DNA of 64,000 nt from an uncultured Gammaproteobacteria bacterium (GTDB lineage: Bacteria; Pseudomonadota; Gammaproteobacteria; Steroidobacterales; MnTg04), in NCBI GenBank assembly GCA_964568075.1, contig CAZMOM010000002.1:32398-96397 (forward strand), read 5' to 3'. A model generated the notes under the pieces. The model searched no databases and had not been told where the DNA came from. It saw only the letters and a program-made list of their open reading frames with translations. The translations under genes were made by a program, and so were the position numbers. Each line of letters starts with the position of its first letter. Positions within the stretch are counted from its first letter, which is position 1. Positions 14,383 to 32,803 of this stretch are shown here, in pieces.

Positions 14383-16613
14383 CGTTTTCGTTTTCGATTT
14401 CGCGCCCGTGACTTTCTCGGTGGCGGATCGCCTACCAGTTCAAAATCGATCTTTCTTTGGTCCATATCGACGCGGCTGACACGCACCTGCAAGTGATCCG
14501 ACAGCCTGAATTCCGCGCGCTTTTTTTCACCAGTCAGCGTGTGGTGGGTTGGGTCGTGCTCATAATAATCCACCGGCAGTGCGCTGATGTGTACCAGGCC
14601 CTCGATCTGTTTTTCGGGAATCTGCACGAAAAGACCAAAATTGGTCACTCCTGATATTACCGCCGAAAACACCTGGCCAATTTTGTCCTGCATATACTCG
14701 CACTTGAGGTACTCCATGGCCTGACGCGTCGCGTCGTCCGCGCGCTGCTCTGCCTGCGAGCAGATTTGCCCCAGACCGATCATCTCTTTTTTCGAATAAG
14801 CGAATCGCCCCGCTTGGCCGCCAGCCAGAGCGTGCTTGATCGCCCGGTGCACCAGAAGATCAGGAAATCGGCGTATCGGCGACGTGAAATGTGCATATTC
14901 TGCCAGCGCCAAGCCAAAGTGACCGGCGTTGTCAGGTTCGTAAATCGCCTTGGACAAGGAACGCAGCAGAACCGTCTCGATCAGATCGGAATCGTCACGC
15001 GTCGTTACTTTCTCCAGCAAACGGCTGTAATCCATGGGCTTTGGCTTTTTCCCGCCACCCAGTGACAATCCCTCTGCTGCCAGAAACAATCGCAGACCTT
15101 CCATCTTTTCCTGGTCGGGCCCGGCATGGGAACGATAAAGAAAAGGAAGGCGTTTTCGATGAATAAAGCGGGCCGCTTCGATGTTGGCGGCGATCATGCA
15201 CTCTTCGATGATCCGGTGCGCGGCGTTGCGTGGATAGGCGACCAGGTTTTTCAGCGTCTTGTCGTTCGCAAAAACCGCCTTGACTTCGGGTATGTCGAAT
15301 TCCAGTGCTCCGCGCCGGTGGCGCGCACGGGCCATAGCGCGATAGGCTTCGTGCAAGGCCGAAAGAGGCGTCAACAGGCGCTGGTGCTTCCGTCGGCTCG
15401 CAGCACTCTTGTGAATCAGTATATCGGCCACCTCGGTGTAGGTCAGTCTCGCCGTCGATTGCATTACGGCTTCAAAAAAATCGGATGACAGTACCTTGCC
15501 CTGCTTCGACAGCTTCATCTCACAGACGAGGCACAGGCGGTCCACCTTGGGCTTGAGGCTGCACAGTCCATTGGAGAGGATTTCCGGCAACATCGGAATT
15601 ACCTCGCGCGGAAAATAGACCGACGTTCCGCGCCGCTGTGCTTCCCGGTCCAGCGCGGTGCCTGGTTTTACGTAGTGCGCGACATCGGCGATCGCCACCA
15701 GGATGGTCCAGCCTTCCCGATTTCTCTCACAATAAACCGCATCATCAAAATCCCTGGCATCGGCTCCGTCAATGGTGAGCAAGGGGGTGTCGCGCAGGTC
15801 GTAGCGGTCATATTTAGCGGCCTCCGGAACCCGCTTGCCATAGCGACTGAGCTCCTTTTCCACCGCTTCAGGCCAGACATTCGGCAGCCCATGCGCGCTG
15901 ATGGCGATCAGCGTTTCCATGCCGGGGTCGTCGACTTCGCCCAGGATTTGCTTCACCTGGCCGACCGCCGCGCTGTGCGCTGTTGGTTGTCCGGTAATCT
16001 TCAGGACAACGACCTGGCCTGGCCGGGCGCCTTTGCGGAATCTTGGCGCTACCGAAATGTAGCGGCTGTACCGGTTGTTATCCGGTATGACAAAACCCTT
16101 GCCCCGTTCAAGGTGAAATCCACCGACCAGCTCCGTTGTTTTACGTTCGAGAACTTCGACGATGACGCCCTCCGGCCTCCCCCGCCTGTCTTCGCCCCGT
16201 ACCCTGACCGCCACACGATCCCCGTGCATGACCTGGCGCATCTCGCGGGCCGTCAGAAAGATGTCTCGCGTACCTTCATTGTCCGGGATCAGGAATCCGA
16301 AACCGTCCGGGTGGCCCTGGATTCTCCCCGTAGTTAGCGGCAAATGGCCGGTCAGGCAGTACAACCCTTTACGGTTTTTGATTACCTGCCCGTCCCGGGC
16401 CATCGCTTCCATGCGTCTGGTCAGCGCCGACCGGGCACGTTGCCCTTTCAGCCCCAGCTGCGCATTGAGCTCCGTCAGGCTCAGCGGTCTGCCGACTTTC
16501 TCGAGGGACTGATTGATTAATGCTCTGCTGGGTATCGGAAAGCGATGGAGATTGGCTTCCCGAGCTGCTTCCGGATTACGATCCTTCCATTGTTTTTTCT
16601 TGACCATCTGCAC
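14379..16613 (-). CDS. rnr: Ribonuclease R
   Basis: The 744-aa protein has an RNB catalytic region (TIDGADARDFDDAV, HFGLALAEYAHFTSPIRRFPDLLVHR). It also has an S1 domain and a basic K/R C-terminal tail. Confidence 0.95.
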   Translation of the reverse strand: MQMVKKKQWKDRNPEAAREANLHRFPIPSRALINQSLEKVGRPLSLTELNAQLGLKGQRARSALTRRMEAMARDGQVIKNRKGLYCLTGHLPLTTGRIQGHPDGFGFLIPDNEGTRDIFLTAREMRQVMHGDRVAVRVRGEDRRGRPEGVIVEVLERKTTELVGGFHLERGKGFVIPDNNRYSRYISVAPRFRKGARPGQVVVLKITGQPTAHSAAVGQVKQILGEVDDPGMETLIAISAHGLPNVWPEAVEKELSRYGKRVPEAAKYDRYDLRDTPLLTIDGADARDFDDAVYCERNREGWTILVAIADVAHYVKPGTALDREAQRRGTSVYFPREVIPMLPEILSNGLCSLKPKVDRLCLVCEMKLSKQGKVLSSDFFEAVMQSTARLTYTEVADILIHKSAASRRKHQRLLTPLSALHEAYRAMARARHRRGALEFDIPEVKAVFANDKTLKNLVAYPRNAAHRIIEECMIAANIEAARFIHRKRLPFLYRSHAGPDQEKMEGLRLFLAAEGLSLGGGKKPKPMDYSRLLEKVTTRDDSDLIETVLLRSLSKAIYEPDNAGHFGLALAEYAHFTSPIRRFPDLLVHRAIKHALAGGQAGRFAYSKKEMIGLGQICSQAEQRADDATRQAMEYLKCEYMQDKIGQVFSAVISGVTNFGLFVQIPEKQIEGLVHISALPVDYYEHDPTHHTLTGEKKRAEFRLSDHLQVRVSRVDMDQRKIDFELVGDPPPRKSRARNRKRKR

Positions 16614-16719
16614 TCCATGCTTGTCGGTAGCCTGACAAGCTACCGGCAGATTGACAAGTATTTAGCGGGTGCATTACAGTGCGCGCCTCATTTCGTGGTG
16701 CATCGCGCCAGCCCTGCCT

Positions 16720-16806
16720 GCCCAGGTGGCGGAATTGGTAGACGCGCGGCGTTCAGGTCGCCGTGTCCTTACGGATGTGCGAGTTCGAGTCTCGCCCTGG
16801 GCACCA
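16720..16806 (+). tRNA. tRNA-Leu (anticodon CAG), CCA encoded
   Basis: GCCCAGGTGGCGGAATTGGTAGACGCG CGGCG TTCAGGT CGCCG ...long variable arm... GAGTTCGAGTCTCGCCCTGGGCACCA. The cloverleaf was folded by hand and is close to E. coli tRNA-Leu(CAG). Confidence 0.93.
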
Positions 16807-16842
16807 ATCTCTCTTTTTGCTTCTTTTTCTCTTGATTGGAAG

Positions 16843-17166
16843 AGAAAAAGAAGAAGACACTCCGTCCGCGCAGCGGACACCGACTTGTTACCACCATCCC
16901 CAACAAAACTGACGATATTGCAGCGGACATTGCCCCCTGTAGTCTGACGCAGGTGGCTTGACCTGCTCCCTCCCTTAGCTCAACCAGAAAAAGAAGAAGA
17001 CACTCCGTCCGCGCAGCGGACACCGACCTGTTACCACCATCCCCAACAAAATTGACGATATTGCAGCGGACATTGCCCCTTGTAGTCCGGCGCAGGTGGC
17101 TTGACCTGCTCCCTCCCTTAGCTCAACCAGAAAAAGAAGAAAGCAATTCGTCCGCGCAGCGGACAA
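16843..17166. repeat. 143-bp tandem repeat, about 2.25 copies, between tRNA-Leu and the 17172-17621 gene
   Basis: Copies start at 16843, 16986 and 17129. Copies 1 and 2 differ at about 5 positions. Each unit carries hairpins GTCCGC-gca-GCGGAC and GCAGGT-ggcttg-ACCTGC. A perfect 14-bp inverted repeat (16820-16833 / 16840-16853) joins the tRNA flank to the first unit. Confidence 0.85.
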
Positions 17167-17171
17167 CAGTT

Positions 17172-17621
17172 TCAGCCAGCAGCGTATTTTTCCGCGAACC
17201 ACCCCAGCGCTATGCAGCCAGCGAGATAATAGAAAATAGATTCCAGCGTCCACCAGCCCCAAAGCGCATCCGGAAGATTGAAAACTCCGGACCATCCCAG
17301 CGTTACCGTCGCAGCGATCAGGAACAGGACCAATCCGTACTTTGCGCCTTTGAGCCATCCGTCGCCGCCAAAGGATGCGCGAACCACGTCATAGACGCCC
17401 GCAATGACAAAGGACCCGATCAGTCCTGTGACGATCCATCGCGGCATCAAGGCCGCCATGTCGGGCGGCTCCTGGTTTAACTCCGGTCGCCAGAACTGCG
17501 CATGCATCTTGTAAAGTTCGTCCAGCACGCCCTCATGGATTAACGGGCCGCTAAAAATTGCGACTACCCATGCGGCTGCGTAGTAAACAATGCCGCCGAC
17601 AAATATCAGTTTCCAGTTCAT
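17172..17621 (-). CDS. Small integral membrane protein (about 4 TM, possibly DUF1761-like)
   Basis: The 149-aa ORF has hydrophobic helices separated by short loops. I recognised no diagnostic motif. Confidence 0.5.
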   Translation of the reverse strand: MNWKLIFVGGIVYYAAAWVVAIFSGPLIHEGVLDELYKMHAQFWRPELNQEPPDMAALMPRWIVTGLIGSFVIAGVYDVVRASFGGDGWLKGAKYGLVLFLIAATVTLGWSGVFNLPDALWGWWTLESIFYYLAGCIALGWFAEKYAAG

Positions 17622-17795
17622 TTTGGGTCTCCCAGGCTGTCCCAGCCATTAGTATAGTAAGCGTGTCGGACAATGCCATGCTGGGTCATGCGGGATGGGA
17701 CGGGCGGCCGGACTGGCTGAGTCTGCGTTTTTTCGTTTCGGCGTGGCATTTTGCTACGATGCAGACCTTCTCGGTCATGCTTGCGGGGAACGTAC

Positions 17796-19046
17796 ATGCA
17801 AAAACCGAACGGCACATTCACATTGTTACTCCTCGTCTCGTTTTTGGGGGCCTGCTCCGCTGATCCGGGCGGCAGTCTGCAACTGGAGATACTTGAATCG
17901 CCGGCGCTTGACCACAGCGGGGAACCGCATCTACAGGCCGGGCCAGACGGGAAAATAATCCTCAGCTGGCTTGAAAAAAAAGATCAGAGCGCGACGCTGC
18001 GTTACTCGGTATTCGCTCAGGACGAGTGGGGGAATCCCAGGACCGTGGCAAGCGGCGACAACTGGTTTGTCAACTGGGCTGATTATCCCTCGGTTACAGT
18101 TGTCGGTCCTGAGCTCTGGGCGGCCCACTGGCTGCAAAAAAAACCGGGCGGCACGTACGCCTATGACGTCAAAATCTCATTGTCACGGGATGGAATAAAC
18201 TGGCAGCCATCGATAAGTCCACACGATGACAATACGCCGACCGAGCACGGGTTTGTCAGCATGATTGGCCTGCGGGGAAAATTAGGCGCAGTCTGGCTGG
18301 ATGGCCGATACACCAGCGAAACGCAAAGCCACGAAACGGATCAAGGGTCCGGCGACCAGGACCATGACGGCATGACCTTGCGCTGGGCTGCCATCGGCGG
18401 CGATGGGCGGGTTGTCGAGTCAGTCGAACTTGATTCCCTGACCTGTGATTGCTGTCAGACCGATCTGGTCCAGGTTGGTGGCGGCGCAGCGGTGGTGTAT
18501 CGGGACCGTAGCCGAGATGAAACAAGGGACATCGGCATTATCCGCCTGACCAAAGACGGGTGGAGCGAACCGGCCATAGTTGCAAAAGATGACTGGAAGA
18601 TCGCCGGTTGCCCGGTCAACGGTCCGGCCATTGACAGCAGGCGTGATGAACTGGCGGTCGCCTGGTTTACCGCCGCCAATGATCAAAAGCGGGTCAAAGT
18701 TTCGTTTTCCGAAGATGGCGGGCATCACTTTTCGTCACCTGTCGATATCAGCCGCGGTGATCCCCTGGGAAGGGTAGACGTCAGCTGGGTCACCGATGAT
18801 CTTGTCGTCGTAAGCTGGCTGGAAGAACAGGATGACGGCAAGGCAGCGTTAACAATAAGATTCGTGTCGCGGGATGGAACGGCAGGCGCCGAAGAGACGA
18901 TCGCGGTGACCGGGAGCGAGCGCTCATCAGGTTTCCCGCAAATGCTGGCAACCGGGAATGAGTTGTTTTTTGCCTGGACCGATACCGGCGAGATACCGCG
19001 GGTTCTGACCGCTCGTCTTCCTCTGGCCGGCCTGATTGGCAGGTAG
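17796..19046 (+). CDS. Lipoprotein with BNR/Asp-box (sialidase-like beta-propeller) repeats
   Basis: The likely start ATG 17796 gives the signal MQKPNGTFTLLLLVSFLGAC, which contains a lipobox. Asp-box-like motifs SRDGINW and SEDGGHHF are present. Repeated W/beta-strand patterning is consistent with a propeller. Confidence 0.6.
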   Translation: MQKPNGTFTLLLLVSFLGACSADPGGSLQLEILESPALDHSGEPHLQAGPDGKIILSWLEKKDQSATLRYSVFAQDEWGNPRTVASGDNWFVNWADYPSVTVVGPELWAAHWLQKKPGGTYAYDVKISLSRDGINWQPSISPHDDNTPTEHGFVSMIGLRGKLGAVWLDGRYTSETQSHETDQGSGDQDHDGMTLRWAAIGGDGRVVESVELDSLTCDCCQTDLVQVGGGAAVVYRDRSRDETRDIGIIRLTKDGWSEPAIVAKDDWKIAGCPVNGPAIDSRRDELAVAWFTAANDQKRVKVSFSEDGGHHFSSPVDISRGDPLGRVDVSWVTDDLVVVSWLEEQDDGKAALTIRFVSRDGTAGAEETIAVTGSERSSGFPQMLATGNELFFAWTDTGEIPRVLTARLPLAGLIGR

Positions 19047-19056
19047 ATCCTGCGAC

Positions 19057-20136
19057 ATGACCGGCCACGGATTTCCCCGCGAGACGCCGGACACCGTTTG
19101 CATAGTCAGGCTGTCTGCGATAGGCGATTGTTGTCATGCCCTGCCGGTCATCCGAACGCTTCAGGACGCCTGGCCAGGGACAAACTTCACCTGGATTATT
19201 GGTGGCACCGAGTCCAAATTATTCGGCGGAATCCCTGATATCGAATTCCTGCCTCTAGATAAATCATCAGGTTTCAATGGCTTGAGAGAATTACGTAAAC
19301 AGTTACGTAACCGCCGATTTGATCTTCTTTTGCATATGCATCCGTCCATGCGGGCGAATCTGGCTAGCCTGTTTGTGCGCGTGGACCGCCGACTCGGCTT
19401 TGACAGAAAACGCGCCAGGGACCTGCAATGGTTGTTTTGCAATGAGCAAATCCCAGGGCGCAGCAGGCAGCATGTCATGGATTCGTTTTTCGGGTTTGCC
19501 GAGTCGCTCGGGATAACATCCCGTTCGATGCGCTGGGATATTCCCATTCCGGAACCAGACATCGAGTTTTCAGATCACACGATTCCGGACGACGTTCCGG
19601 CAGTCATCGTATCGCCATGCAGCAGCATGATGCGCGGCCGACAAAAAAATTATCGCAACTGGCTGCCGGATCGATACGCCGAAGTAATCGATCACGCGAA
19701 CGAACGGTGGCAGGCCAGCACTTTTTTGACCGGCGGCAGTTCCATGCAGGAAGAGGCCGTCGCGAACGCCATTATCGCAAAATGCAAAAACCCACCGGTT
19801 AACCTGATGGGCAAAACCACCCTGCTCCAGTTGCTGGCGATACTGAAAAAAGCCAGCGTGCTGGTCTGTCCCGATTCAGGCCCGGGTCACATGGCGACCG
19901 CGGTCGGCACCCCGGTCGTCGGCCTGTTTGCATCGACGAATCCTGCGCGCGCGGCGCCCTATCTGAGTACGGAGTGGCTGGTCAACGAATACCCGACCGC
20001 TTTGTTCGATGCTCATGGATTGTCCGTCGAACAAGCCAAATGGGGGAAACGCATCCACTCGCCTGAGGCCATGCAACTGGTACAGGTTGCCGATGTTTGT
20101 CACCAGCTGGATGCATTGCTCGACAAGTCGCAATAA
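19057..20136 (+). CDS. Glycosyltransferase family 9 (heptosyltransferase-like)
   Basis: The N-terminus ICIVRLSAIGDCCHALPVIRTLQDAWP and the C-terminus CPDSGPGHMATAVGTPVVGLF are typical of GT9. The gene overlaps the end of the upstream gene. Confidence 0.8.
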   Translation: MTGHGFPRETPDTVCIVRLSAIGDCCHALPVIRTLQDAWPGTNFTWIIGGTESKLFGGIPDIEFLPLDKSSGFNGLRELRKQLRNRRFDLLLHMHPSMRANLASLFVRVDRRLGFDRKRARDLQWLFCNEQIPGRSRQHVMDSFFGFAESLGITSRSMRWDIPIPEPDIEFSDHTIPDDVPAVIVSPCSSMMRGRQKNYRNWLPDRYAEVIDHANERWQASTFLTGGSSMQEEAVANAIIAKCKNPPVNLMGKTTLLQLLAILKKASVLVCPDSGPGHMATAVGTPVVGLFASTNPARAAPYLSTEWLVNEYPTALFDAHGLSVEQAKWGKRIHSPEAMQLVQVADVCHQLDALLDKSQ

Positions 20137-20163: not shown

Positions 20164-21162
20164 TCAGGTTCGGTGATGCGGCAGTCCGACAAACGTGCCG
20201 CCGTTTTGCTCGCAAAGCAGGCGCATCAGTGTCGCGAATCGTATCGTGGTCGTCTGCAGGTGTGTTGGCAGCGTAAGAAGGGCCGGGAATCCGACCGCGT
20301 TGATCCGGACCAACCGCTTTCCATCGCGACCCTCCCGGTTAATCTGGCTTACTAAATTCAGAACCTGATCAATTGATCGGCCGGTAAATTCATCGCCAAA
20401 AACGTAGAGGCTGATTTTTTTGTCTGGCGAATAAAAAGTCTCTATGGCTTTGGTTATTCCTTCGACCGGACTGGAATTACTGAACGCGTTCCAGGTTTTG
20501 AGCCTGTCCATAATCGCTTTGCGCCGCCCGGGTGTATCGGGTATCCATTTTCCTGTGTAGCGGGTGAACATAAACTTACCCATATCGTTCATGACCTGGA
20601 TACCCTTGACCTTGGGATAAATTTCCAGCGTTTCCCGAAATTTCTCCAGCATCAGCGGCCAACTGTAGTTAATCATGCTCCCCGATGTATCGATGATGAA
20701 AATAATGTATTCGCTGTCGACGGGTATCCCGCCGATCAAATTGTCGTTTTCTGATTTCTGATAATCAGCCAGCAATCGCTTCATTTCGGACGTAAGCGAC
20801 TGGCGGGCGGCCGCCAGTTTTCCCTGGATGATATTGATCAACTCCGCGTCCTGACGGGAAGCGGCAAACTCGCCCTGAATTTTCGACATTTCCGCCTGCA
20901 GACGCGCCAGGCGTTGCCTGGCGACTGATAGCTGGTCTTCCCGGGAGATCATTTCCCGATTGAGAATACTGGTCTCGCCCCAGATCTCGTGCAAATCACG
21001 TTGCCGGTCCTCAAGCGCAGCCTGCAGATCGATGGCGGACTGCTCGATCACGACCGGCTCGAAAACCTTGGTCAGCACCAGCATCAGAATAACGGCGCCG
21101 AAACCACAGCAGATGACGTCAAGAAAGGACAGTGTGAGTCCTGTATCGCGCTTTCGCTTCAT
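20164..21162 (-). CDS. ExbD/TolR/MotB-like Asp-TM anchor, coiled coil and periplasmic vWA domain protein (paralogue 2)
   Basis: The N-terminus MKRKRDTGLTLSFLDVICCGFGAVILMLVL is a single TM with an embedded Asp (compare ExbD PFIDV, TolR PLLDV). A heptad-rich segment of about 100 aa follows. The vWA domain has MIDAS-like IIFIIDTSGSM and a later VFGDE. Confidence 0.7.
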   Translation of the reverse strand: MKRKRDTGLTLSFLDVICCGFGAVILMLVLTKVFEPVVIEQSAIDLQAALEDRQRDLHEIWGETSILNREMISREDQLSVARQRLARLQAEMSKIQGEFAASRQDAELINIIQGKLAAARQSLTSEMKRLLADYQKSENDNLIGGIPVDSEYIIFIIDTSGSMINYSWPLMLEKFRETLEIYPKVKGIQVMNDMGKFMFTRYTGKWIPDTPGRRKAIMDRLKTWNAFSNSSPVEGITKAIETFYSPDKKISLYVFGDEFTGRSIDQVLNLVSQINREGRDGKRLVRINAVGFPALLTLPTHLQTTTIRFATLMRLLCEQNGGTFVGLPHHRT

Positions 21163-21174
21163 GTCGCGCCTCCT

Positions 21175-22272
21175 CTACGGCCAGTCCCGGGAGGGGCTCA
21201 GAAAAGACCCCTTGGTGGCCATTGCCAGCTTCCAGTAATCGGACGATGCCGCCGGATCGCCTTCCATCGGAAACAGCACGATGTTGATGGGAATATTCAA
21301 AGGAAGATATCTCACCGCCCTGTCGAATAGTCTCTCTCTTTGTCGTCCTGTGACCGTTCCAGACGCCCTGATGTTCTCACCCTGGGTTGGTAAGCCATCG
21401 ACCAGCAAATAAACATTGTCCGGTTGGGGATGGAGCGATGTAATTACAGCAAACGCTGCGTGCAGGCTGGTGCCTTTCTCCGGGACCAGCCGCCGCAAAT
21501 TCTCGACCGCCCGGTTCAGGTCGCTGCCATCCCCCGCCTCCAGCCAGCGTCCAGCTGTGCCCTCCACCAACGGCGTTGCAGTCGTGTTAAACGCGTATAT
21601 CTGAAACTGGCTGGTTGGCGGAATCTGCGCGGTCAGCCAGTCAACCGTTTTAATCGCCCGTTGCCATTTCCTTGCCGCGAGCTTTTGCTCTGTCCGCATG
21701 TTCCGGCGTCGAATAACATTGACGATCGTTTCATCGAGCATGCTTGCCGACGCGTCAAGCAGAATCAATATGCGGTCGCCCCCCATCTGCATGCCCGTCA
21801 GATATTGCCTGTTTCCTTCGCCGATGAACGAACGCACGCTGTCTCCGCGCTGCTCGCCTTGTTCGACACCGCCTTCCAGTCTTCGGCGTTCCTCCTCGTT
21901 TGCCTGCAGGTCGGCTTTCAGTTTGTTGACGCTCTCTTTACTCGCCAACGTATCCTCATCCAGCCTCGCCAGTTCGACCCGGATTTTTTCCAGGTCCTGT
22001 GCGATCGAGTCGGCAAGACCATCGGTGACTGTTTCTTTCTCGTCCAGAATCGTGACGTTATTCCTGATTTGGACCAGGTATTCCTTACCTTCAAGAACCT
22101 GTTCTTCGAGCCGGGCAATTTCAGAAAGAAGATCGATGTTAGCTTCTTCTGTGCGCCGCTCTGTCGAATGATTGATAATCAGAAAAACAAGAATGACGGC
22201 GCCAAAACCACAGGACATACAATCCAGAAAAGACAAGTTAAAAACATTCATTTGTCGTTTTCTGAGAGCCAT
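21175..22272 (-). CDS. ExbD/TolR/MotB-like Asp-TM anchor, coiled coil and periplasmic vWA domain protein (paralogue 1)
   Basis: The TM segment NLSFLDCMSCGFGAVILVFLI is followed by a long coiled coil. The vWA domain carries ILILLDASASM, GTSLHAAF and YLLVDGLPTQG. ATG 22272 lies 1 nt after the upstream stop; an alternative TTG start is at 22284. Confidence 0.7.
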   Translation of the reverse strand: MALRKRQMNVFNLSFLDCMSCGFGAVILVFLIINHSTERRTEEANIDLLSEIARLEEQVLEGKEYLVQIRNNVTILDEKETVTDGLADSIAQDLEKIRVELARLDEDTLASKESVNKLKADLQANEEERRRLEGGVEQGEQRGDSVRSFIGEGNRQYLTGMQMGGDRILILLDASASMLDETIVNVIRRRNMRTEQKLAARKWQRAIKTVDWLTAQIPPTSQFQIYAFNTTATPLVEGTAGRWLEAGDGSDLNRAVENLRRLVPEKGTSLHAAFAVITSLHPQPDNVYLLVDGLPTQGENIRASGTVTGRQRERLFDRAVRYLPLNIPINIVLFPMEGDPAASSDYWKLAMATKGSFLSPSRDWP

Positions 22273-22273
22273 G

Positions 22274-23617
22274 TTAATCGCCAATACTGATCAGCTGAAC
22301 GGTCTCGCCCGGCGATCCCATGCGTATGACGTCGCCCAGCGCCAGTTCGGCGAACTCAGTGATCTTTCGCCCGTTGACGAACGTTCCATAACTCGAATGG
22401 TCTTCCACTGTCGTTCTTCCTTTCGCGCTTTTTACAGTACAGTGTTTCCGCGAAACGCCATCCAGCACACCGACCAGCTTTACGCCGCGCTCATTTTCGG
22501 GGGGGTCGATACCCAAAACCAGTGGGCCGTCGCTCAGAGAGTAGGCCCTGGCGCGGTAAAGCAAATGACTGGGCTTCGTATTCGACGACATCGCGATCCT
22601 GGCCGGGGACGATCCGCCGGACAACGGCAAACTGCTTAAAAAACCGACTTCGCCATTGCCCGGGCCGCTATTGCAAAGCCCTGGACGCGCAAGCACGCCG
22701 CGTGCCGCCGCGTTTTCATCCAGCCACCGCGATTCCAGCCCGTCTATCAAGCCCAGACTTTCTTTCAGGCCCGGAAATCCTGCCATTCGATGGCTAATCG
22801 CCATCAATCGGCCTTGCCGCGGTCGGACCTGCTGAACGATCTGCGGGTAAACAGCCGAACTTGCCGATAACAGATGATCGACGCCCAATTGCACCGTGTA
22901 GGTCTTGTCGTCTGCTTCAAGATCAATCGACGTGTTGCCACCGGATTCGACATCCGCCAGCCAGCTATCGAGCTTGTTAAACAGCTGTTGCTCCGTTGCC
23001 GCTTTGTGCAAGGGATCGAAGCGTGTCTGGCGGACGAATATATCTGCAACAATATTGGCCCAGTTTTCACGCAGCGCAGACAACCCCGTTTCACAGACGA
23101 CGAATACGCCGGCACGGGAAAGCTGGTCATCACTTTCCAACTCCGTCAATACGATTCGTTGTTGTTGAAGATCGAGATGCAGAGCGGGTAAATCAGGCTC
23201 GAGCGAAATGCCGGCTGCCACCGCCGCATCCACCATGCCCAGCACCGGGATATCCAGATCGGAAGCAATGCCCAGCATCAGCCCCATCTGTTCCTGATTC
23301 CAGGTTCCGGGTACCGCAACGATCAAGCCCGAATCGGGTTTGGCCAGTTGTTGCCAGATGTGCTCAAGATGGGCGTGAGCCAGATCGGCATTGGTTCGAA
23401 ATCGACCGGATGGATTCGACAACGGCTCCTGATTGAGTCCGCTCCAGAAACTGGTGTTTGTCCACAAGGGCTTCAGCCGTGATCTGTCGAACGCTTCCTG
23501 GCCAAGAAAAATATGCGGGCCATCCAGCACGGCACAGGCAGGGCTGCTAACGACTGTACGCTGGCCATCGCTGACCACGAGATCAACATCATTTATTTCC
23601 AGGACGAGATCAGACAA
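22274..23617 (-). CDS. Hsp70/actin-fold-like protein fused to a C-terminal FHA domain
   Basis: The central AVPGTWNQEQMGLMLGIASDLDIPVLGMVDAAVAAGI mirrors the Hsp70 motif ([32 protein letters not shown]). The N-terminal phosphate-1 region looks degenerate (LVLEINDVDLVV). The C-terminus has canonical FHA motifs (GVSRKHC...SSYGTFVNGRKI...GDVIRMG). Confidence 0.65.
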   Translation of the reverse strand: MSDLVLEINDVDLVVSDGQRTVVSSPACAVLDGPHIFLGQEAFDRSRLKPLWTNTSFWSGLNQEPLSNPSGRFRTNADLAHAHLEHIWQQLAKPDSGLIVAVPGTWNQEQMGLMLGIASDLDIPVLGMVDAAVAAGISLEPDLPALHLDLQQQRIVLTELESDDQLSRAGVFVVCETGLSALRENWANIVADIFVRQTRFDPLHKAATEQQLFNKLDSWLADVESGGNTSIDLEADDKTYTVQLGVDHLLSASSAVYPQIVQQVRPRQGRLMAISHRMAGFPGLKESLGLIDGLESRWLDENAAARGVLARPGLCNSGPGNGEVGFLSSLPLSGGSSPARIAMSSNTKPSHLLYRARAYSLSDGPLVLGIDPPENERGVKLVGVLDGVSRKHCTVKSAKGRTTVEDHSSYGTFVNGRKITEFAELALGDVIRMGSPGETVQLISIGD

Positions 23618-23631
23618 CGGCGTCTCCTGCT

Positions 23632-24429
23632 TTAGCGGACCTGTAAATGTCGAATCAGTTGTTCATCGACATAAGTTTGGGAATCCAGAACTAGCCCCTC
23701 TTGCGCCTCCTGCAACTGGTGCAACAAAAACATTACGATGATGCTGATGATCAGTGCGACAAATGTCGAATTGAAAGCGATACCGAGTGCCTGCGTGACC
23801 CCGGTAATGTCTCCGGCGACCGCTTCATTGGCACGGCCCAGGGCCTGACCGATCCCCCTTACCGTGCCGATAAATCCCACAGACGGTATCGCCCACGCCA
23901 GATAGCGCACCATGGACAGTTCGGTATCCATGCGTTCCGATTCCGTATCGCAAACCGCCTTGACCGCTGTGGATACATCCTGGATGCTCTTCGTCGCACG
24001 AAACCGGTGCAGGGCCGTCAACAGGGCTCGCGGTAACAACCGCCTTTGTTGCTCAATATTCATCGCCTGCAAGGGTCTCGCGTATTCCCGCGTGTCCTCC
24101 GGCAGCACGCTGGTTCCTTCACGGACGGAAATCAGTTTTTCCAACAGGAAACTGCGTTCGCGGTTCGTTACGATCGCCTTGTAACCCATCAGCGCGAACG
24201 CCCAGAGCATCAGGATAAAACAGGTTTCCTGTTCAAAGTCCCTGATAATGACGTAAAGGGATCGCTGTGGAACATAGTTTTCATCCTGCTCGAGCAGGAC
24301 AGCTCGTTCCAGAATTACGGCTTCAGCTCTTGGCCGGACCATCGAAACATAGATCGCGTGAACGATAATGACCGCAAGTATCAGGGAAAAGACCTGATAC
24401 AAAAATTCAACTGGATAGCGTCGCTGCAT
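23632..24429 (-). CDS. MotA/TolQ/ExbB family proton channel protein
   Basis: The 265-aa protein has N-terminal TM helices and a cytoplasmic insert. Its C-terminal signature is YLAWAIPSVGFIGTVRGIGQAL...GVTQALGIAFNSTFVALIISIIVMFLLHQL, which matches the MotA_ExbB core pattern. Confidence 0.8.
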   Translation of the reverse strand: MQRRYPVEFLYQVFSLILAVIIVHAIYVSMVRPRAEAVILERAVLLEQDENYVPQRSLYVIIRDFEQETCFILMLWAFALMGYKAIVTNRERSFLLEKLISVREGTSVLPEDTREYARPLQAMNIEQQRRLLPRALLTALHRFRATKSIQDVSTAVKAVCDTESERMDTELSMVRYLAWAIPSVGFIGTVRGIGQALGRANEAVAGDITGVTQALGIAFNSTFVALIISIIVMFLLHQLQEAQEGLVLDSQTYVDEQLIRHLQVR

Positions 24430-24447: not shown

Positions 24448-24729
24448 TCAGATATCGACCGGGTATGAGATAGACAGGTCACTGGACACCTTTTCGCTGG
24501 GCACAAAACTGTCCAGATCATCGATGGTTTGCGGCCGTTCCTCGCGTGGTTCTACGACCTGGGCTGCAGCGGCCATATCGTCGGCAGCAACCGCTGGCGC
24601 CGGATCGGCTACTCCCTGCTGCTCAGCGGTCCGGTCGGCGTCTTCTTCCTGAGCAACGAGGGGCCCGGAAAACCAAAAACAAATGGACAAGAGTATTCCC
24701 TGCGCTATGTTTCCTGCGTGCCTGATCAC
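24448..24729 (-). CDS. Small secreted acidic protein (signal peptide)
   Basis: The 93-aa protein has the signal MIRHAGNIAQGILLSICFWFSGPLVAQ followed by an E/D/A/P-rich region. Its placement within the operon is tight (14- and 18-nt gaps). I recognised no domain. Confidence 0.5.
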   Translation of the reverse strand: MIRHAGNIAQGILLSICFWFSGPLVAQEEDADRTAEQQGVADPAPAVAADDMAAAAQVVEPREERPQTIDDLDSFVPSEKVSSDLSISYPVDI

Positions 24730-24743
24730 ATCAGAACCTCCAC

Positions 24744-27245
24744 TTATTCAAGATACCGCGCCAGCCGAAAGCCCAGATCGTCACGCGGGTCCTTGGCGTA
24801 ATCGCGAAAACCGACCCTCAATTCGCTGACACCGCCGGATGTCCAGCTGGACCCGCGAACAACATAATACTCCCCACTGGCCGGGCCTAGCGGATCCGTA
24901 GTAAGTTTTCCGGCCCGCAGAGGGTCTGCCGAGTAATAGTCATGCACCCACTCCGCGACGTTGCCAGCCAAATCAAAAAACCCGGTATCGGTGGCGTCAA
25001 ATGAGCCCGTGGGGGAGGTGGCCGCATATTTATCGTCGTAGCCTTCGATAACCACTGACACCATCATGCGTGCCGAGTTATCTGCGAAATTTCCGGAGCC
25101 ACTGAGCGGAGGCAGATTTTCGCCCCATGGATAGCGATTTTTCACGCCCTGCCTCGTTTGTCGTTGCGCCATGGCCCATTCCGCCTCGGTCGGCAGTCGA
25201 TAACCGGTAGTCATCGGGCTGGCGCCGACCAGCAGGTCATTCTCCGCAACATAGGCTGGCGGCAATCCGTCTTTTTCACTTAACCAGTTACAATATCTCG
25301 CGGCATCCTGCCAACTGATCTGGACAACCGGATGAGTATTTTGGTTCAAACTCGTTTTCTTGACGGCGCCGGAATTATGCTCCCGGCTAAACTTGCGAAA
25401 CTCCGCATTACTGACTTCATGAGTCCCCAGATAAAAAGGCTTCTCCAGTACTACAGGATGCTCGATCTCATTCGAGCGTCGCCCCGGTTGGCGACGCGGC
25501 GTTCCCATATCGATGCGTCCACCTTTGATTAAATTCAGTTTCTGCCCGGCCGCAGTCTCGATCGTCTTCGGAATCGACTCCCAGCGAGCCTGTTCAAGCG
25601 TTTTCAGATGCGCCACAAGCTGTTGCTCAAAGCCGGGCCGCGGCGTTACCCGGGCATGAAACGGCGCAAATCCTGGTTTGGAAAACTCGATCAGATGTGG
25701 CTGCGCGGATAATTTGAGCTGAAGATTGGTTTCGCCGCGATTGACTCCGTCAACTTTCACCGTAGCACCGGCTGGTTCGCTTTTGACTGTGACGAGGCCG
25801 ACCAGCGCCTGCAGGTTAACCAACACGCTGGCGTCCTGATCGGAACGCACTCGCAGATTGCGCGTTGCATTTCGGTGGCCTGCCAATGAAAACGCCAATT
25901 GATATTCGCGGTCGGGCGCCAACGCGATGCTCAATGGTGTTCGGCCCCGGTACTGCCGGTTTACGGTCACGCTCGCCCCGGGCGGGTTACTGCGAACCGA
26001 TACTTTTCCGTCGGCCTTGAGCAGCGTCACGGGCAGAAGCTGATGATTTCCGGCAATGACATCGATATTTTCCTGCCAGGTCTTGAACCCTTTTCTGCTA
26101 ATTTTCAGCTGCCGGCTACCCTGTAGCAATTCAACCGTCAGCGGGGTACTGCCGATTTCCAGATCATCGACAAAAACCCGCGCAACGGACGGCACGGACG
26201 TGAGTTCATAATTTGCCCAGGCGGGCAACATCTCTATTGTCAGGCTCAGTTCGTGTCCTCCGCCTTCCACCTGGATTGTCTGTCGATGATCGAGATAACG
26301 ATCCGCGCGTAACAGCAACTCATGTTCGCCAGATTCAAGATCGATATCGGACAGGGGCGTTACGCCGAGATCCCTGTCGTCCACCCGAACCGAAGAAATA
26401 GCGACCGGCGTACTTTGAATGCGAAAGTAATCCGGTAGCCTGTTGAGCTGAAACAGTACCTCCTGATTGGCTGACCCATCGACCCGGAACGTTTCCCGGA
26501 GCGGATGATATCCCTGCTTTTGTGCCGAAACCCTGGCATCGCCCTGTAACAGCAGGTAACGGCCACCCAATTCAAAACTCAACCATGCGCCGTCAACGTC
26601 AAATTTATCCGGCATCGGTTCGATGACAACGCGCACGGCTGTAGCCGAAAACATAAATGCTGCCAATGCTGCAAGGATCAAAAACCCGGCCACAATCGCC
26701 ATGGGCAACGGACGAAAACGGTCTTTGCGATCGAGCCTTTGCGTGCTCCGCGAAAATGAGCCGGGAACAATTTTCTGCGCGGAGATTTCGGTCGCTGACG
26801 GTTTGGCAGTCACGCTGAGATCGCCTGGAGTATCTGGCGACGTCAGTACCCATGACTTGACGCCATCCGACTCCTCTTCGCCCGGTGGCAAAGTCGAATT
26901 GGTGTCACGGGCCTGAAGATAGAGAATGCCGCCACGCCCGTCGGAGGCGAAATTTAGAATCAGCGGCCCCGCTCGTACGCGGTCACCATTACTCAGCAGG
27001 ACGGAGTCATCGATTTTTCGGCCGTTGACGAAAACACCCGGCGACCCGGACTCGATCTTCAGGGTCACTTTGCCGGCGTCGACGACAAAACTCGCTACCG
27101 GCTGCTGAACGTTGGTTGGCAAACTGCTCACCGGCAAGATCTCGCCGGTTTTGTCCAGAACCAGATAAAGCTCCGACTGGCTCTGTTGCTTATCGCCCGC
27201 TGACCGGTTGGTGTCAGTATGATTGGTCAAATCTTTTCCTCGCAC
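24744..27245 (-). CDS. FHA-like, TM, PEGA repeats and FGE-sulfatase (SUMF1/EgtB/PvdO-type) domain protein
   Basis: The cytoplasmic N-terminus has an FHA-like core (GVFVNGRKIDDSVLLSNGDRVRAGPLIL). A TM (MAIVAGFLILAALAAFMF) follows, then about 5 PEGA-like repeats (for example ARVFVDDLEIGSTPLTVELLQGSRQLKISRKGF). The C-terminus has FGE-type motifs (HPVVQISWQDAARYCNWL, GYRLPTEAEWAMA, GNVAEWVHDYY, VVRGSSW). The start is GTG 27245 or the TTG overlapping the upstream TGA. Confidence 0.8.
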   Translation of the reverse strand: MRGKDLTNHTDTNRSAGDKQQSQSELYLVLDKTGEILPVSSLPTNVQQPVASFVVDAGKVTLKIESGSPGVFVNGRKIDDSVLLSNGDRVRAGPLILNFASDGRGGILYLQARDTNSTLPPGEEESDGVKSWVLTSPDTPGDLSVTAKPSATEISAQKIVPGSFSRSTQRLDRKDRFRPLPMAIVAGFLILAALAAFMFSATAVRVVIEPMPDKFDVDGAWLSFELGGRYLLLQGDARVSAQKQGYHPLRETFRVDGSANQEVLFQLNRLPDYFRIQSTPVAISSVRVDDRDLGVTPLSDIDLESGEHELLLRADRYLDHRQTIQVEGGGHELSLTIEMLPAWANYELTSVPSVARVFVDDLEIGSTPLTVELLQGSRQLKISRKGFKTWQENIDVIAGNHQLLPVTLLKADGKVSVRSNPPGASVTVNRQYRGRTPLSIALAPDREYQLAFSLAGHRNATRNLRVRSDQDASVLVNLQALVGLVTVKSEPAGATVKVDGVNRGETNLQLKLSAQPHLIEFSKPGFAPFHARVTPRPGFEQQLVAHLKTLEQARWESIPKTIETAAGQKLNLIKGGRIDMGTPRRQPGRRSNEIEHPVVLEKPFYLGTHEVSNAEFRKFSREHNSGAVKKTSLNQNTHPVVQISWQDAARYCNWLSEKDGLPPAYVAENDLLVGASPMTTGYRLPTEAEWAMAQRQTRQGVKNRYPWGENLPPLSGSGNFADNSARMMVSVVIEGYDDKYAATSPTGSFDATDTGFFDLAGNVAEWVHDYYSADPLRAGKLTTDPLGPASGEYYVVRGSSWTSGGVSELRVGFRDYAKDPRDDLGFRLARYLE

Positions 27246-29611
27246 CGTATCAATACGGGCTCAGGCGATTCGCCAGGCCTGATGACGATTTGCTTTCTGA
27301 CATCGCGATACCCGTCACGAGTACCGATCAGGGTATACCGGCCAGGCAAAAGCTCCAGCGAATGATTGTTAAATGAACCCAGCCTGCCGATCTGGTAAAC
27401 GAAAACTTCGGTCATCGTGTCAGAGACCAGATCTATTTTTACCGGTATTCGGGCGAGCTGGAGTTGCAATTGCAACTGAACCAGTTGGCTGCTCAGCCGC
27501 GGACCAGGATTCGGCAAAAGATGTACCTGCTCGAGAAAACCCAGCGCCGCCTGGTAAACACCGTCTTCAGCCAGGCGCTCTGGCTTTTCTGTGTATAAAA
27601 CGAACTCCTCGTCCACGCCGATCATTTTTTGCGCCAGCGTTACGCCCTCGCGGCCAAACACGAGGTTGGGATCAAGTTTCAGCGCCGACTGGTACGCCAG
27701 CAGTGCTCGCTCCCATCGTTCATTGGCCGCATGGCCGTCGGCCTGTATACGGTATCGGCTGATTTCATTCAGCTTCATGACCTCATCGACCTGGTGCAGA
27801 CCATCCTTGGCGTCGACCGAGCCGGGATTAAGTCTTAGCGCCACCTGAAACGATTTCTTTGCCTGCTCCAGCTTGTTTTGGGCCAGGTAGGAAAATCCGT
27901 CGGACATCGACCGACTGAAATTCTGCCTGGCCAGACTTTTCTCCAAATCGCCAAGTGCGTTTATTGCCGGCTGCCAGGCTGGATTCAGATTTAGCACCTT
28001 GCGATAGGCGTCGCGCGCGGCAGAAATCTGATCTTCGTGCAAAAGGGATTCCGCGTCTGTCATCAACTGAAGTACCTGGTCGAGATTCTGCGCCCGAGCC
28101 AACCCTTGCCGAGCCCTGTTACTGTTCGAATAGATTGCAACCGCCAATTCATACTGCTGTTGGGCGCCGGTCGAATTACCGTCCGCCAAAGCGCTATCTC
28201 CGGCATCCAGCGCCGCTTCGAACACCGGGTTCACACGGTCGGTCAGCGCGTCGCTTTTTTCCAGCGCCGAGACATAGCTGGCCAGCGCAGCCAAATAATT
28301 TCCTTCGCGAAATAATGAATCTCCCTCGCGGGCCTGCTCAACTGCCGCGATAAACTCCTCGGCGGCCCAGAGATTGACGGCTCGATCTTCCAGTGCAATT
28401 TGCCGCCTCAACAATTGCGCAACCAGGCGCTCCGCCTGCTCGCGATTGCGCGCCGCTTCGGCAGACTCATAAGGGGCCAGCCTGGTCGCCTCTTGCACAT
28501 CGGCCAAGTCAGCAGCGGTTGAATTTAAGCTTTCTGGCGGCAACCCGGATTCGGGAGATGCGGTCAGCGTCTGATCGGGTTTTCTTTTAGCGACCTGCTC
28601 CGGTAAATACAAAAAAACGGCAGCAGCCAACAACAACAGGACGGCCATGATCAACCCGGGTATCCACGGTCGCCTGTCCAATAGATCCTGATCGACCGTG
28701 CCAGAGAGATCAGCGCTCACCGGCGCCACTGCGTGACGACGGATTTGTGTGATTTTGTCTGGCTCACTGTTTCCGGCGGCCGGTTGTTCTCCCGGCGGCA
28801 GCGTGGCTGTGCTGCCAAGACCGGTGGCATCGGCAAGCGCATTGCGTACCGCAGCGACCGATGAGGGCCTTTCAGCCGGAATCTTGGCCAGCATGCTCAT
28901 GATCAACGTGGTAAGGCCCGCCGGAAGCGGGTAGTCCGTCTGCGGCGGAACGGGTACCTCGTTCCGTATCTTGTCGTGATCGATGCTGGGATGAAACGGC
29001 GGCTTGCCCGTGAGCAGCTCGTAGATCATGACCCCCAATGCGTAGATGTCGTCGGCGACTGCGGCAGGATCGCCGTCAAGTTGCTGCGGACTGATCGAAT
29101 AGGGCGAGCCGCCTCCTTCGATTCCAGCGGAATCCCCGCTGAGCCCGCCGATCCCGAAGTCGCTGAGTTTGACCGTTCCATCGAGCGCAATCAGCACATT
29201 TTTGAGTTTGAGATCGCGGTGAACCATGCCCGCCTTGTGGGCATATTCCACCGCTTCGAGGACCGGAAACAGCATCGGCAGCCAATCTTTGTAGTGACGG
29301 CCAGCCATGGCCTCGAGATCGTCGCCTTCCACATATTCCATTGAGAAAAAGTGGCTATCGTCACTGCTGAAGAAATCCAGGACGCGAGTGATATTTGGAT
29401 GTACGAGCTTGCGAATGAGACTGCATTCCTTGCGCAGCCTTTCGACCATGTCCGGGTTGGCGGCGAGGGCAGGCTTTAGAATCTTGACAGCGACCCGGCT
29501 CGAAAACTCCTTGTCCTCAGCAAGCCAGACGTCGCCCATCCCCCCATGCCCCAATGGAGCGATCAGTGAAAAACGGCCGGATAATATTTGTCCCTTGTGG
29601 TATTCCTGCAT
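27227..29611 (-). CDS. Serine/threonine protein kinase (Hanks), TM, periplasmic TPR repeats and C-terminal PEGA-like domain
   Basis: Kinase motifs are GHGGMGDVW, VAVKILK, HRDLKLKNVLI and LSDFGIG. The TM is PGLIMAVLLLLAAAVFLYL. At least 5 TPR-like repeats follow, and the C-terminus (LELLPGRYTLIGTRDGYRDVRKQIVIRPG) is PEGA-like. Confidence 0.85.
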   Translation of the reverse strand: MQEYHKGQILSGRFSLIAPLGHGGMGDVWLAEDKEFSSRVAVKILKPALAANPDMVERLRKECSLIRKLVHPNITRVLDFFSSDDSHFFSMEYVEGDDLEAMAGRHYKDWLPMLFPVLEAVEYAHKAGMVHRDLKLKNVLIALDGTVKLSDFGIGGLSGDSAGIEGGGSPYSISPQQLDGDPAAVADDIYALGVMIYELLTGKPPFHPSIDHDKIRNEVPVPPQTDYPLPAGLTTLIMSMLAKIPAERPSSVAAVRNALADATGLGSTATLPPGEQPAAGNSEPDKITQIRRHAVAPVSADLSGTVDQDLLDRRPWIPGLIMAVLLLLAAAVFLYLPEQVAKRKPDQTLTASPESGLPPESLNSTAADLADVQEATRLAPYESAEAARNREQAERLVAQLLRRQIALEDRAVNLWAAEEFIAAVEQAREGDSLFREGNYLAALASYVSALEKSDALTDRVNPVFEAALDAGDSALADGNSTGAQQQYELAVAIYSNSNRARQGLARAQNLDQVLQLMTDAESLLHEDQISAARDAYRKVLNLNPAWQPAINALGDLEKSLARQNFSRSMSDGFSYLAQNKLEQAKKSFQVALRLNPGSVDAKDGLHQVDEVMKLNEISRYRIQADGHAANERWERALLAYQSALKLDPNLVFGREGVTLAQKMIGVDEEFVLYTEKPERLAEDGVYQAALGFLEQVHLLPNPGPRLSSQLVQLQLQLQLARIPVKIDLVSDTMTEVFVYQIGRLGSFNNHSLELLPGRYTLIGTRDGYRDVRKQIVIRPGESPEPVLIRCEEKI

Positions 29612-32574: not shown

Positions 32575-32803
32575 GAAACCTGCCTTTGGCTTTTTTTGGT
32601 GAGCCAGATCGAGCGAACCTACCGCAATTAATCGCGGTCCAAGGATACTCGCCCGCTCCTCGTGGTCACAACCATTCATTCGTGGCTGTTTTGGGGCACT
32701 CCCTTGATTAGACTGGCAATCCGGTTAAAGTTCTGCTATCCGGGGCGGAACTATTATCGCTCCTACCGCTCGTAACTGAACAGATACTGGAAGAAACGTA
32801 TTG

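Follow-up and report, generated by a model that had tools for sequence, protein, structure and literature searches.

A gene for an Hsp70-like protein between putative motor genes

The window analysed here, a stretch of 64,000 nucleotides from an uncultured gammaproteobacterium (contig CAZMOM010000002.1 of assembly GCA_964568075.1), carries an operon on its minus strand that includes a gene for a MotA/ExbB/TolQ-family protein (the TolQ-like or A protein) and genes for two paralogous proteins combining a transmembrane (TM) helix that carries an aspartate, a coiled coil and a domain of the von Willebrand factor A (vWA) type (the B-like proteins). The gene studied here, which we call the target, corresponds to exactly one open reading frame (ORF), 22274-23617 with the stop codon included, encoding 447 amino acids. 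Its product joins a divergent Hsp70-type nucleotide-binding domain (NBD), a variable linker and an atypical forkhead-associated (FHA) domain (Table 1). This architecture, the decay of the catalytic site across the whole family and the fixed position of the gene in a motor operon appear to be undescribed, though both domains are of known kinds and the motor itself was proposed in 2025.

The ORF is a real gene and not a chance reading frame: it has a TTG start preceded by a Shine-Dalgarno sequence, more than 250 homologues, and relatives in the genomes of 388 species. The Shine-Dalgarno sequence lies within the 14 nt that separate the TolQ-like gene's stop codon (23632-23634) from the TTG. The homologues, recovered in a word-indexed search, are 445-480 amino acids long and share the N-terminus MSDLVLEIND; their database names say at most 'FHA domain-containing protein'. 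The protein strings quoted in a first-pass annotation of this DNA are all present in the 447-residue product: LVLEINDVDLVVSDG at residues 4-18, AVPGTWNQEQMGLMLGIASDLDIPVLGMVDAAVAAGI at residues 101-137, and the FHA strings GVSRKHC (387-393), SSYGTFVNG (408-416) and GDVIRMG (428-434).

The target family is large, widespread, unstudied and unannotated. A HMMER search restricted to residues 1-335 returned 1,475 cluster representatives (50% identity) at E <= 1e-3 and 574 at E <= 1e-30. Among the 150 matches listed, most are 400-500 amino acids long, and the Hsp70-like domain is N-terminal in all of them. About 20 of these 150 are 340-360 amino acids long and end within the linker region; members of 340-355 amino acids may be genes truncated at contig ends or truncated gene calls, and as all of them end inside the linker we dropped the label of an NBD-only variant. 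When one genome per species was scanned with a sequence pattern, relatives turned up in 388 genomes; the carriers are Gammaproteobacteria, among them cultured Steroidobacter and Peristeroidobacter, as well as Desulfobacterales, Acidobacteriota and Nitrospinaceae.

The gene order is strictly conserved. We compared 84 related loci from Gammaproteobacteria, Desulfobacterales, Acidobacteriota and Nitrospinaceae, placing the operon proteins by tblastn. In every one of them long enough to judge, the target lies between the TolQ-like gene and the two B-like genes, in the same order and on the same strand, so that the first-pass placement of the gene between a stator gene and B-like genes holds well beyond this window. 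The median distance from the end of the A gene to the start of the target is 12 nt (81 loci), and the end of the target abuts or overlaps the start of the vWA gene. Of the four central operon proteins, the target evolves fastest in these loci: its median identity is 35%, against 56% for the A protein and 50% and 59% for the two B-like proteins (59% for the one encoded at 20164-21162). This suggests that the target is an accessory or regulatory rather than a core component.

The N-terminal domain has an Hsp70-type fold

We modelled the target with AlphaFold2 using an alignment of 45 family members, which also served as the family profile. The model has a mean predicted local distance difference test score (pLDDT) of 89.6 and a predicted template modelling score of 0.73. 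In a Foldseek comparison with the Protein Data Bank (PDB), the top 50 matches to the model are all Hsp70s, with a best E-value of 2e-15. Chains that contain only the NBD (Hsc70, 1kaz; Mycobacterium tuberculosis DnaK, 6w6e_I) align over ∼360-380 columns with a root-mean-square deviation of 4.1-5.1 Å and a target-normalised TM-score of 0.62-0.69, while alignments with full-length Hsp70s span ∼540 columns.

Profile comparisons give the same answer. Searched against PDB sequences, the 45-member profile matches SSB1 (E 1.3e-4; positions 80-316 of the profile pair with residues 126-381 of the chain) and DnaK (6e-4), as well as Sse1 and Ssz1; no other actin-fold family is matched up to E = 10. Using hhalign, the profile aligns with an alignment of the NBDs of the Escherichia coli proteins DnaK, HscA, HscC and YegD at E 7e-5 over 266 columns. 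The divergence is considerable: none of the 45 members (0/45) matches the Pfam family HSP70 (PF00012) even at E <= 1, and no Pfam or NCBIfam model matches residues 1-340 of the window protein, nor any Pfam model those of the 45 diverse members.

As judged from the predicted structure and the profiles, it is close to certain that residues 1-312 form specifically an Hsp70-type NBD. The actin/Hsp70 fold proposed in the first-pass annotation is thereby borne out on its Hsp70 side: in the comparison with the DnaK NBD, MreB, FtsA and PilM, the predicted structure is Hsp70-like. Kinship with PilM, FtsA or MreB was rejected, as none of these appears among the top 50 Foldseek matches or in the PDB profile search. 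YegD was likewise rejected as a specific relative (hhalign E 0.31).

The register between the target and DnaK was fixed by hhalign against DnaK itself and against the alignment of the four E. coli Hsp70s. It pairs G39..A42 of the target with G51..A54 of DnaK, AVPGTWNQEQ with TVPAYFNDAQ, V-D130-AAVAA with N-E171-PTAAA, H-L-D149-L-Q-Q-Q-R with V-Y-D194-L-G-G-G-T199, and TRFDPLH with LRNDPLA. Residues 100-140, which had been described as a mimic of the Hsp70 connect and adenosine motif, correspond in this register to the Hsp70 connect-1 segment (DnaK 139-180) but not to the adenosine motif.

A variable linker leads to an atypical FHA domain

No part of the protein varies more than the 36-residue linker, whose median identity is 15%, compared with 37% in the NBD and 42% in the FHA domain. 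Model confidence drops there: successive ten-residue blocks over residues 311-350 have pLDDT values of 64, 81, 59 and 61, and the model places short strands at residues 326-327 and 329-331. These strands belong to a conserved F-V-T-x-L-P element (residues 326-331, window positions 22625-22642), in which we infer a resemblance to the interdomain linker of Hsp70 (VLLLDVTPL). In Hsp70, this linker docks onto the NBD in the ATP state.

The C-terminal domain belongs to the FHA family by its Pfam score (PF00498; 43.9 bits, where the cutoff is 20.7; E 3.2e-11), and 44 of the 45 family members match the same model. The match is limited to FHA model positions 17-67 and begins past the GR motif. The residues kept are G369, S389, R/K390 (R390 in the target), H392 and N415. 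The position of the GR arginine (370) is occupied by hydrophobic or small residues (A/L/V/I/W/C), with no GR in any of the 244 sequences of a larger family alignment, and the asparagine position of S-x-N-G-T (Rad53 N107, Y410 in the target) by Tyr, His, Phe or Gln. Two of the five residues of the canonical phosphothreonine site, as defined in Rad53 FHA1 (G69-R70, S85, H88, N107), are thus replaced in the target. The GR arginine (Rad53 R70, M. tuberculosis Rv0020c R459) is a principal phosphate ligand in the established FHA literature. A basic residue in the lengthened beta3-beta4 loop, R377, might compensate for its absence: the position is Arg in 29 of 41 loci with a kinase domain and Lys in 7 of 10 loci without one. 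The first-pass description of a canonical, textbook FHA domain is therefore right about the family, but the domain is not canonical. Phosphothreonine binding is possible and cannot be assumed from the residues present.

The ATP site is degenerate across the family

We counted alignment columns of the nucleotide-binding site in two alignments, of 45 and 244 family members. The domain has signatures of its own: E7-x-x-D10, AVPG(103), D130-AAVAA, H147-L-D149 and T198-R-F-D-P...E209-Q210. The last of these, in full T198-R199-F200-D201-P202...H204...E209-Q210, marks the start of subdomain IIB and is the best-conserved feature of the whole protein, with R199 and D201 invariant in 244/244 members.

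Only three elements of the Hsp70 ATP site survive family-wide, all of them acids: the phosphate-1 aspartate D10 (242/244), D130, equivalent to DnaK E171 (223/244), and D149, equivalent to DnaK D194 (228/244, and Glu in another 14). Compared with that of Hsp70, the phosphate-1 hairpin is short, and it contains no Thr or Ser. DxG[TS] is found there in 1/244 sequences and DxG in 179/244, while the target itself reads D-V-D instead of D-x-G. The Gly-rich phosphate-2 turn is replaced by Q/H-L-H-R/Q, and at least two glycines remain in just 2/244. The equivalents of DnaK T199 and D201 are R154 and V156. The region of DnaK K70 falls into an alignment gap, with no conserved Lys in the 45-member columns or in the hhalign comparison. 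The GG of the adenosine motif is present in 2/244, and the family has S275-H-R277...P282 instead; hhalign finds no conserved counterparts of the DnaK adenosine contacts E267, K270 and S274 in the family. S275 and R277, as well as H147 and H153, are themselves conserved.

By sequence, then, the decay of the ATP site extends to the whole family, and Hsp70-type catalysis has probably been lost. The first-pass annotation had suggested a degenerate nucleotide-binding N-terminus and a pseudo-ATPase scaffold, and had proposed a check of the catalytic residues across orthologues. That check finds that the family does not keep an intact ATPase site: the Gly-rich loops, the GG and the equivalents of K70, T199 and D201 are gone family-wide. 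The label of pseudo-ATPase is the best reading of these motif losses.

The surviving residues allow an alternative in which the domain acts as a nucleotide-sensing switch: it would bind ATP or ADP, another phosphorylated ligand or a metal without Hsp70-type hydrolysis, like PilM or Ssz1, and its occupancy would set the conformation in which the FHA domain or the linker faces the motor. The persistence of the three acids, the DxG of 179 members, the conserved S275, R277, H147 and H153 and an F-V-T-x-L-P element that recalls linker docking in the ATP state all suit such a switch, whereas the loss of both glycine motifs, the shortened hairpin, the adenosine contacts without conserved counterparts and the D-V-D of the window protein itself count against it. 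We consider it unlikely, although its case is stronger than that of a working ATPase.

The operon encodes a putative 5:2-type motor

The target is embedded in an operon of nine genes (Table 1), whose central part fits the description of a tolQ-like/TPH-vWA motor operon: a TolQ-like gene accompanied by a heterologous TM(Asp)-vWA pair, with no tolR, exbD or motB gene in the segment 20164-24429. The TolQ-like protein has four predicted TM helices and conserved threonines in the motifs GFIGTVRG and AFNSTF (74 orthologues). The cytoplasmic loop between TM2 and TM3 (residues ∼108-116) carries the sequence LPEDTREY, in which L-P-E-D is at least 95% conserved and Thr is the consensus; by its sequence, this loop is a candidate docking site or phosphorylation site for the FHA domain. 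In both B-like proteins the TM aspartate within LSFLDxxCGFGA and the metal-ion-dependent adhesion site (MIDAS) are conserved (78 and 64 orthologues). Their N-terminal tails are cytoplasmic and short (∼10-15 residues), with a conserved Arg-Arg just before LSFLD (22230-22272 and 21120-21162), and these tails are possible ligands of the acidic cleft of the Hsp70-like domain. The first B-like protein likely starts with an ATG at 22272, 1 nt after the stop codon of the target.

Table 1. Parts of the target gene and the genes of its operon, with their positions in the window
Feature	Position	Strand	Basis or remark
Whole gene, Hsp70-NBD-like/FHA protein	22274..23617	-	stop codon 22274-22276; homologues and AlphaFold2 model
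Shine-Dalgarno sequence AGGAG	23624..23628	-	6 nt 5' of the TTG start at 23617; read from the sequence
Divergent Hsp70-type nucleotide-binding domain, residues 1-312 (predicted)	22682..23617	-	Foldseek, profile against PDB, hhalign
Variable low-confidence interdomain linker, residues 313-348	22574..22681	-	AlphaFold2 pLDDT, column counts
Atypical FHA domain, residues 349-447	22277..22573	-	Pfam FHA and alignment to the Rv0020c FHA domain (PDB 3po8)
604-residue low-complexity protein, first operon gene	30865-32679	-	no Pfam family
412-residue putative lipoprotein	29627-30865	-	no Pfam family
Hanks-type Ser/Thr kinase, one TM helix, TPR repeats	27227-29611	-	Pfam Pkinase E 6e-41
Protein with a cytoplasmic FHA-like domain at its N-terminus, a single TM helix, four PEGA domains and an FGE-sulfatase domain (GldK/PorK-like)	24744-27245	-	Pfam/NCBIfam
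Small acidic protein, 93 residues, signal peptide (secreted)	24448-24729	-	no family; gene for 86-131 residues at the same place in other loci
MotA/ExbB/TolQ-family protein, 265 residues, putative pentameric A subunit	23632-24429	-	Pfam MotA_ExbB E 3.4e-14
B-like protein 1: TolR/ExbD-like TM helix with Asp (LSFLD), coiled coil, vWA domain, MIDAS DASAS	21175-22272	-	Pfam VWA_2 E 4e-5
B-like protein 2: paralogous TM(Asp)-coiled-coil-vWA protein, MIDAS DTSGS	20164-21162	-	most conserved operon protein

The genes upstream of the TolQ-like gene are more varied in kind. The first operon protein is extremely rich in Ser, Gln, Glu and Ala, with a conserved C-terminal region; the lipoprotein gene, together with a match to part of this protein, recurs upstream in most related loci long enough to judge. 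In the 833-residue PEGA/FGE protein the FHA-like domain scores just below the Pfam threshold (20.0 bits against 20.7) and has neither GR nor SxxH. The best NCBIfam match of its FGE-sulfatase domain is the type IX secretion system ring lipoprotein GldK/PorK, and a protein of the FGE-sulfatase fold next to a 5:2-type motor is reminiscent of GldK next to GldLM.

A PADLOC search left the target unmatched and placed the operon in no defence system; the TolQ-like protein matches ZorA weakly (E 1e-3, in the generic MotA region), and the matches of the kinase are generic. The downstream flank (13645-20136) encodes an rRNA methyltransferase of the SpoU family (possibly RlmB), RNase R, a protein with weak similarity to BNR repeats (below the Pfam threshold) and a family-9 heptosyltransferase. 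With such housekeeping genes downstream, the locus looks like neither a mobile element nor a defence island. Elsewhere in the window, a 739-residue protein that combines a patatin-like phospholipase domain with an Omp85-superfamily domain is encoded at 38872-41091, outside the operon and unrelated to it.

The kinase is an optional part of the operon

The kinase encoded in the window has intact VAVK, HRDLK and DFG motifs. A kinase domain is present in 46 of the 56 operons that could be evaluated and absent from ten, which are mainly from Desulfobacterales, with one Nitrospinaceae locus and two metagenome-assembled genomes labelled Gammaproteobacteria (loci L003, L013, L031, L032, L039, L040, L052, L053, L056 and L057). 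The TPR protein remains in these ten operons. The target is also retained with its FHA domain in all ten, with S389, K390 and H392 conserved. The N-terminal FHA-like domain of the PEGA/FGE protein, on the other hand, is missing from the same ten operons (10/10). The kinase and this FHA-like domain thus appear to behave as one optional signalling module, separate from the target. We found no PP2C phosphatase in the operon or the flanking genes scanned, and the juxtamembrane region of the kinase is not conserved in sequence and contains no conserved phospho-acceptor motif.

These observations bear on the possibility that the target is an obligatory reader of the kinase, its FHA domain recognising a threonine phosphorylated by the Hanks-type enzyme (in the kinase juxtamembrane region or in the TolQ-like loop) and so coupling periplasmic sensing to the stator. 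An apparently active kinase lies three to four genes upstream here and in most evaluable loci, the target keeps S389, R390 and H392, R377 could replace the GR arginine, and the threonine of the LPEDTREY loop is nearly invariant. As a general explanation this nevertheless has little probability: the target persists where the kinase has gone, the domain lost together with the kinase is another FHA-like domain, the canonical GR arginine and NG asparagine of the target are replaced, and neither a phosphatase in the operon or scanned flanks nor a conserved juxtamembrane sequence was found. The absence of the kinase domain from 10 of 56 operons that keep the target indicates that kinase coupling is not its general function, contrary to the first-pass proposal that the protein couples kinase phosphorylation to stator activity. 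Such coupling is at most lineage-specific and would be possible in the kinase-bearing lineages, including that of this window.

A possible cytoplasmic adaptor of the motor

The interpretation we favour, with about even confidence, is that the target serves as a soluble cytoplasmic adaptor or regulator, an accessory subunit, of a PMF (proton-motive force)-driven envelope machine of the TolQ-like/TM(Asp)-vWA 5:2 type. That it is physically associated with the motor seems somewhat more probable. In the mechanism we propose, the Hsp70-like module would act as a non-catalytic clamp that binds a protein or peptide, and the FHA domain would dock the target onto the cytoplasmic face of the TolQ-like pentamer or onto a phosphothreonine. 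Docking would thereby control the assembly or the activity of the motor. In kinase-bearing lineages such as the one sampled here, the Ser/Thr kinase of the operon may modulate docking; speculatively, its candidate sites include Ser/Thr-rich cytoplasmic linkers and the conserved threonine in the LPEDTREY loop of the A subunit.

Several points weigh against the adaptor role. Its basis is synteny, translational coupling and analogy. The published description of the motor does not mention this gene, and versions of the motor that do without the target may exist. D10, D130 and D149 vary little or not at all, and 179/244 members keep DxG; these features of the cleft could mean residual binding of a nucleotide, a metal or another ligand such as a peptide. 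Finally, operons that lack the kinase domain still conserve the S-R/K-x-H loop of the FHA domain, and to judge by this loop the domain might recognise phosphothreonine through a kinase encoded elsewhere.

Two further alternatives are much weaker than the nucleotide switch and the kinase reader. A working Hsp70 paralogue, that is, an ATP-driven remodeller that has exchanged its substrate-binding domain (SBD) for an FHA domain and acts on phosphoproteins, would fit the closest fold, the shared order of NBD, linker and C-terminal beta-sandwich and the ∼540-column full-length alignments, yet it is highly improbable for a protein without equivalents of K70, T199 and D201 or the Gly loops, in a family of which 0/45 members reach Pfam HSP70 and in an operon where Pfam and NCBIfam searches found no J-domain or GrpE-like partner. 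The other alternative, a passenger of the operon that serves FHA signalling and is physically unconnected to the motor, would agree with the indirect nature of the evidence for the role and with faster evolution than that of the motor core, but is hardly credible given an invariant position between the A and B genes in 84 related loci of at least four phyla, with tight or overlapping junctions.

The adaptor role can be carried further, though we hold the following version to be improbable as a whole. The target could be a 'clutch' or an assembly factor, the first regulatory subunit recognised on the cytoplasmic side of a non-flagellar 5:2 ion-driven motor, derived from a repurposed Hsp70 NBD. 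The acids of its former Mg-ATP cleft (E7, D10, D130, D149, D201 and E209) would clamp the Arg-Arg tails of the vWA plugs or a loop of the TolQ-like pentamer, the atypical FHA domain would attach to the pentamer at its cytoplasmic face or to a phosphosite, and both domains together would gate proton-driven rotation.

To our knowledge, outside the flagellum the cytoplasmic control of 5:2 PMF motors (MotAB, ExbBD, TolQR, GldLM, ZorAB, AglRQS) is almost unstudied. A conserved soluble protein, probably a subunit, whose gene lies between the A and B genes of a newly proposed motor class offers a concrete handle on motor regulation. The target family also shows clearly how an Hsp70 ATPase domain can lose its catalytic apparatus and be put to another use, as we read it that of a scaffold. 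Its cultured carriers include Steroidobacter agaridevorans, S. gossypii and Peristeroidobacter soli, and genetics is feasible in the cultured Steroidobacter species.

Comparison with known systems

The N-terminal domain shares with the NBD of Hsp70/DnaK the two-lobed actin-like fold in its Hsp70-specific arrangement. The connect-1 segments align (AVPGTWNQEQ...VDAAVAA in the target, TVPAYFNDAQ...NEPTAAA in DnaK), the target retains counterparts of the acids D8, E171 and D194, and the order of NBD, linker and C-terminal beta domain is the same. The target domain is, however, ∼75 residues shorter, and it lacks K70, the GGGT loop, the adenosine GG, T199 and D201. The FHA domain takes the place of the substrate-binding domain (SBD-beta and lid), there is no J-protein or GrpE partner, and the invariant TRFDP...EQ motif is peculiar to the target family. 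Non-hydrolysing relatives of Hsp70 are known in Ssz1 and Hsp110/Sse1.

PilM, GspL (EpsL) and FtsA are soluble or peripheral modules of the actin-like ASKHA fold at the cytoplasmic base of envelope machines and are often catalytically inert. They clamp short cytoplasmic tails of bitopic membrane proteins, those of PilN, of GspM/GspE and of FtsN (a basic tail), respectively. The analogy with the target is functional only: both B-like proteins of this operon have short tails with Arg-Arg, but the fold of the target derives from Hsp70, with no structural match to these proteins in the top 50 and no profile match.

FHA proteins encoded together with a transmembrane Hanks-type kinase in the operon of an envelope machine are known from type VI secretion (Fha1/TagH-PpkA) and from mycobacteria (FhaA/GarA), and NCBIfam gave weak domain-level matches in the present analysis. 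Those systems keep GR, SxxH and NG and have a PP2C phosphatase, whereas the Arg and Asn of the target are replaced, no phosphatase was found in this operon or its scanned flanks, and the kinase is dispensable in some lineages.

In E. coli K-12 (NC_000913.3, 2147674-2153128; locus L087), yegD (Hsp70-family), yegI (Ser/Thr kinase), pphC (PP2C) and yegL (vWA) form a cluster. It resembles the present operon in having an Hsp70-like protein beside a Hanks-type kinase and a vWA protein, and differs in that no FHA-domain or TolQ-like gene is annotated there. The vWA/MoxR and GTPase/Hsp70 conflict systems (Kaur et al. 2020) were also considered, and the target system is not one of them. Our literature searches found no description of an Hsp70-like NBD joined to an FHA domain, or of this architecture with MotA or vWA proteins.

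A closer parallel for the FHA domain comes from the Agl-Glt gliding machinery of Myxococcus. The juxtamembrane FHA domain of GltG is predicted by AlphaFold on the cytoplasmic face of the pentamer of the TolQ-like protein AglR, and the N-terminal FHA domain of GltG binds a TPR protein (PMC11761067). Both systems combine an FHA domain with a TolQ/MotA-like 5:2 motor, and the operon described here likewise has genes for a TPR protein and for a membrane protein that carries an FHA-like domain at its N-terminus. GltG differs from the soluble target in being a TonB/TolA-like bitopic membrane protein without an Hsp70-like domain.

The motor genes themselves correspond most directly to a recent proposal, in which a gene like tolQ and a heterologous TM-vWA pair with a proton-binding Asp, without tolR or exbD, constitute a new 5:2 PMF motor (PMC12204202, Mol Biol Evol 2025). 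The genes that flank the target fit this proposal, with the TM Asp, the pore Thr and the MIDAS conserved. Neither the main text nor the supplementary text of that study mentions an FHA or Hsp70-like gene. Compared with the motor as proposed there, the target adds a component that had not been described, its gene lying between those for the A and B proteins.

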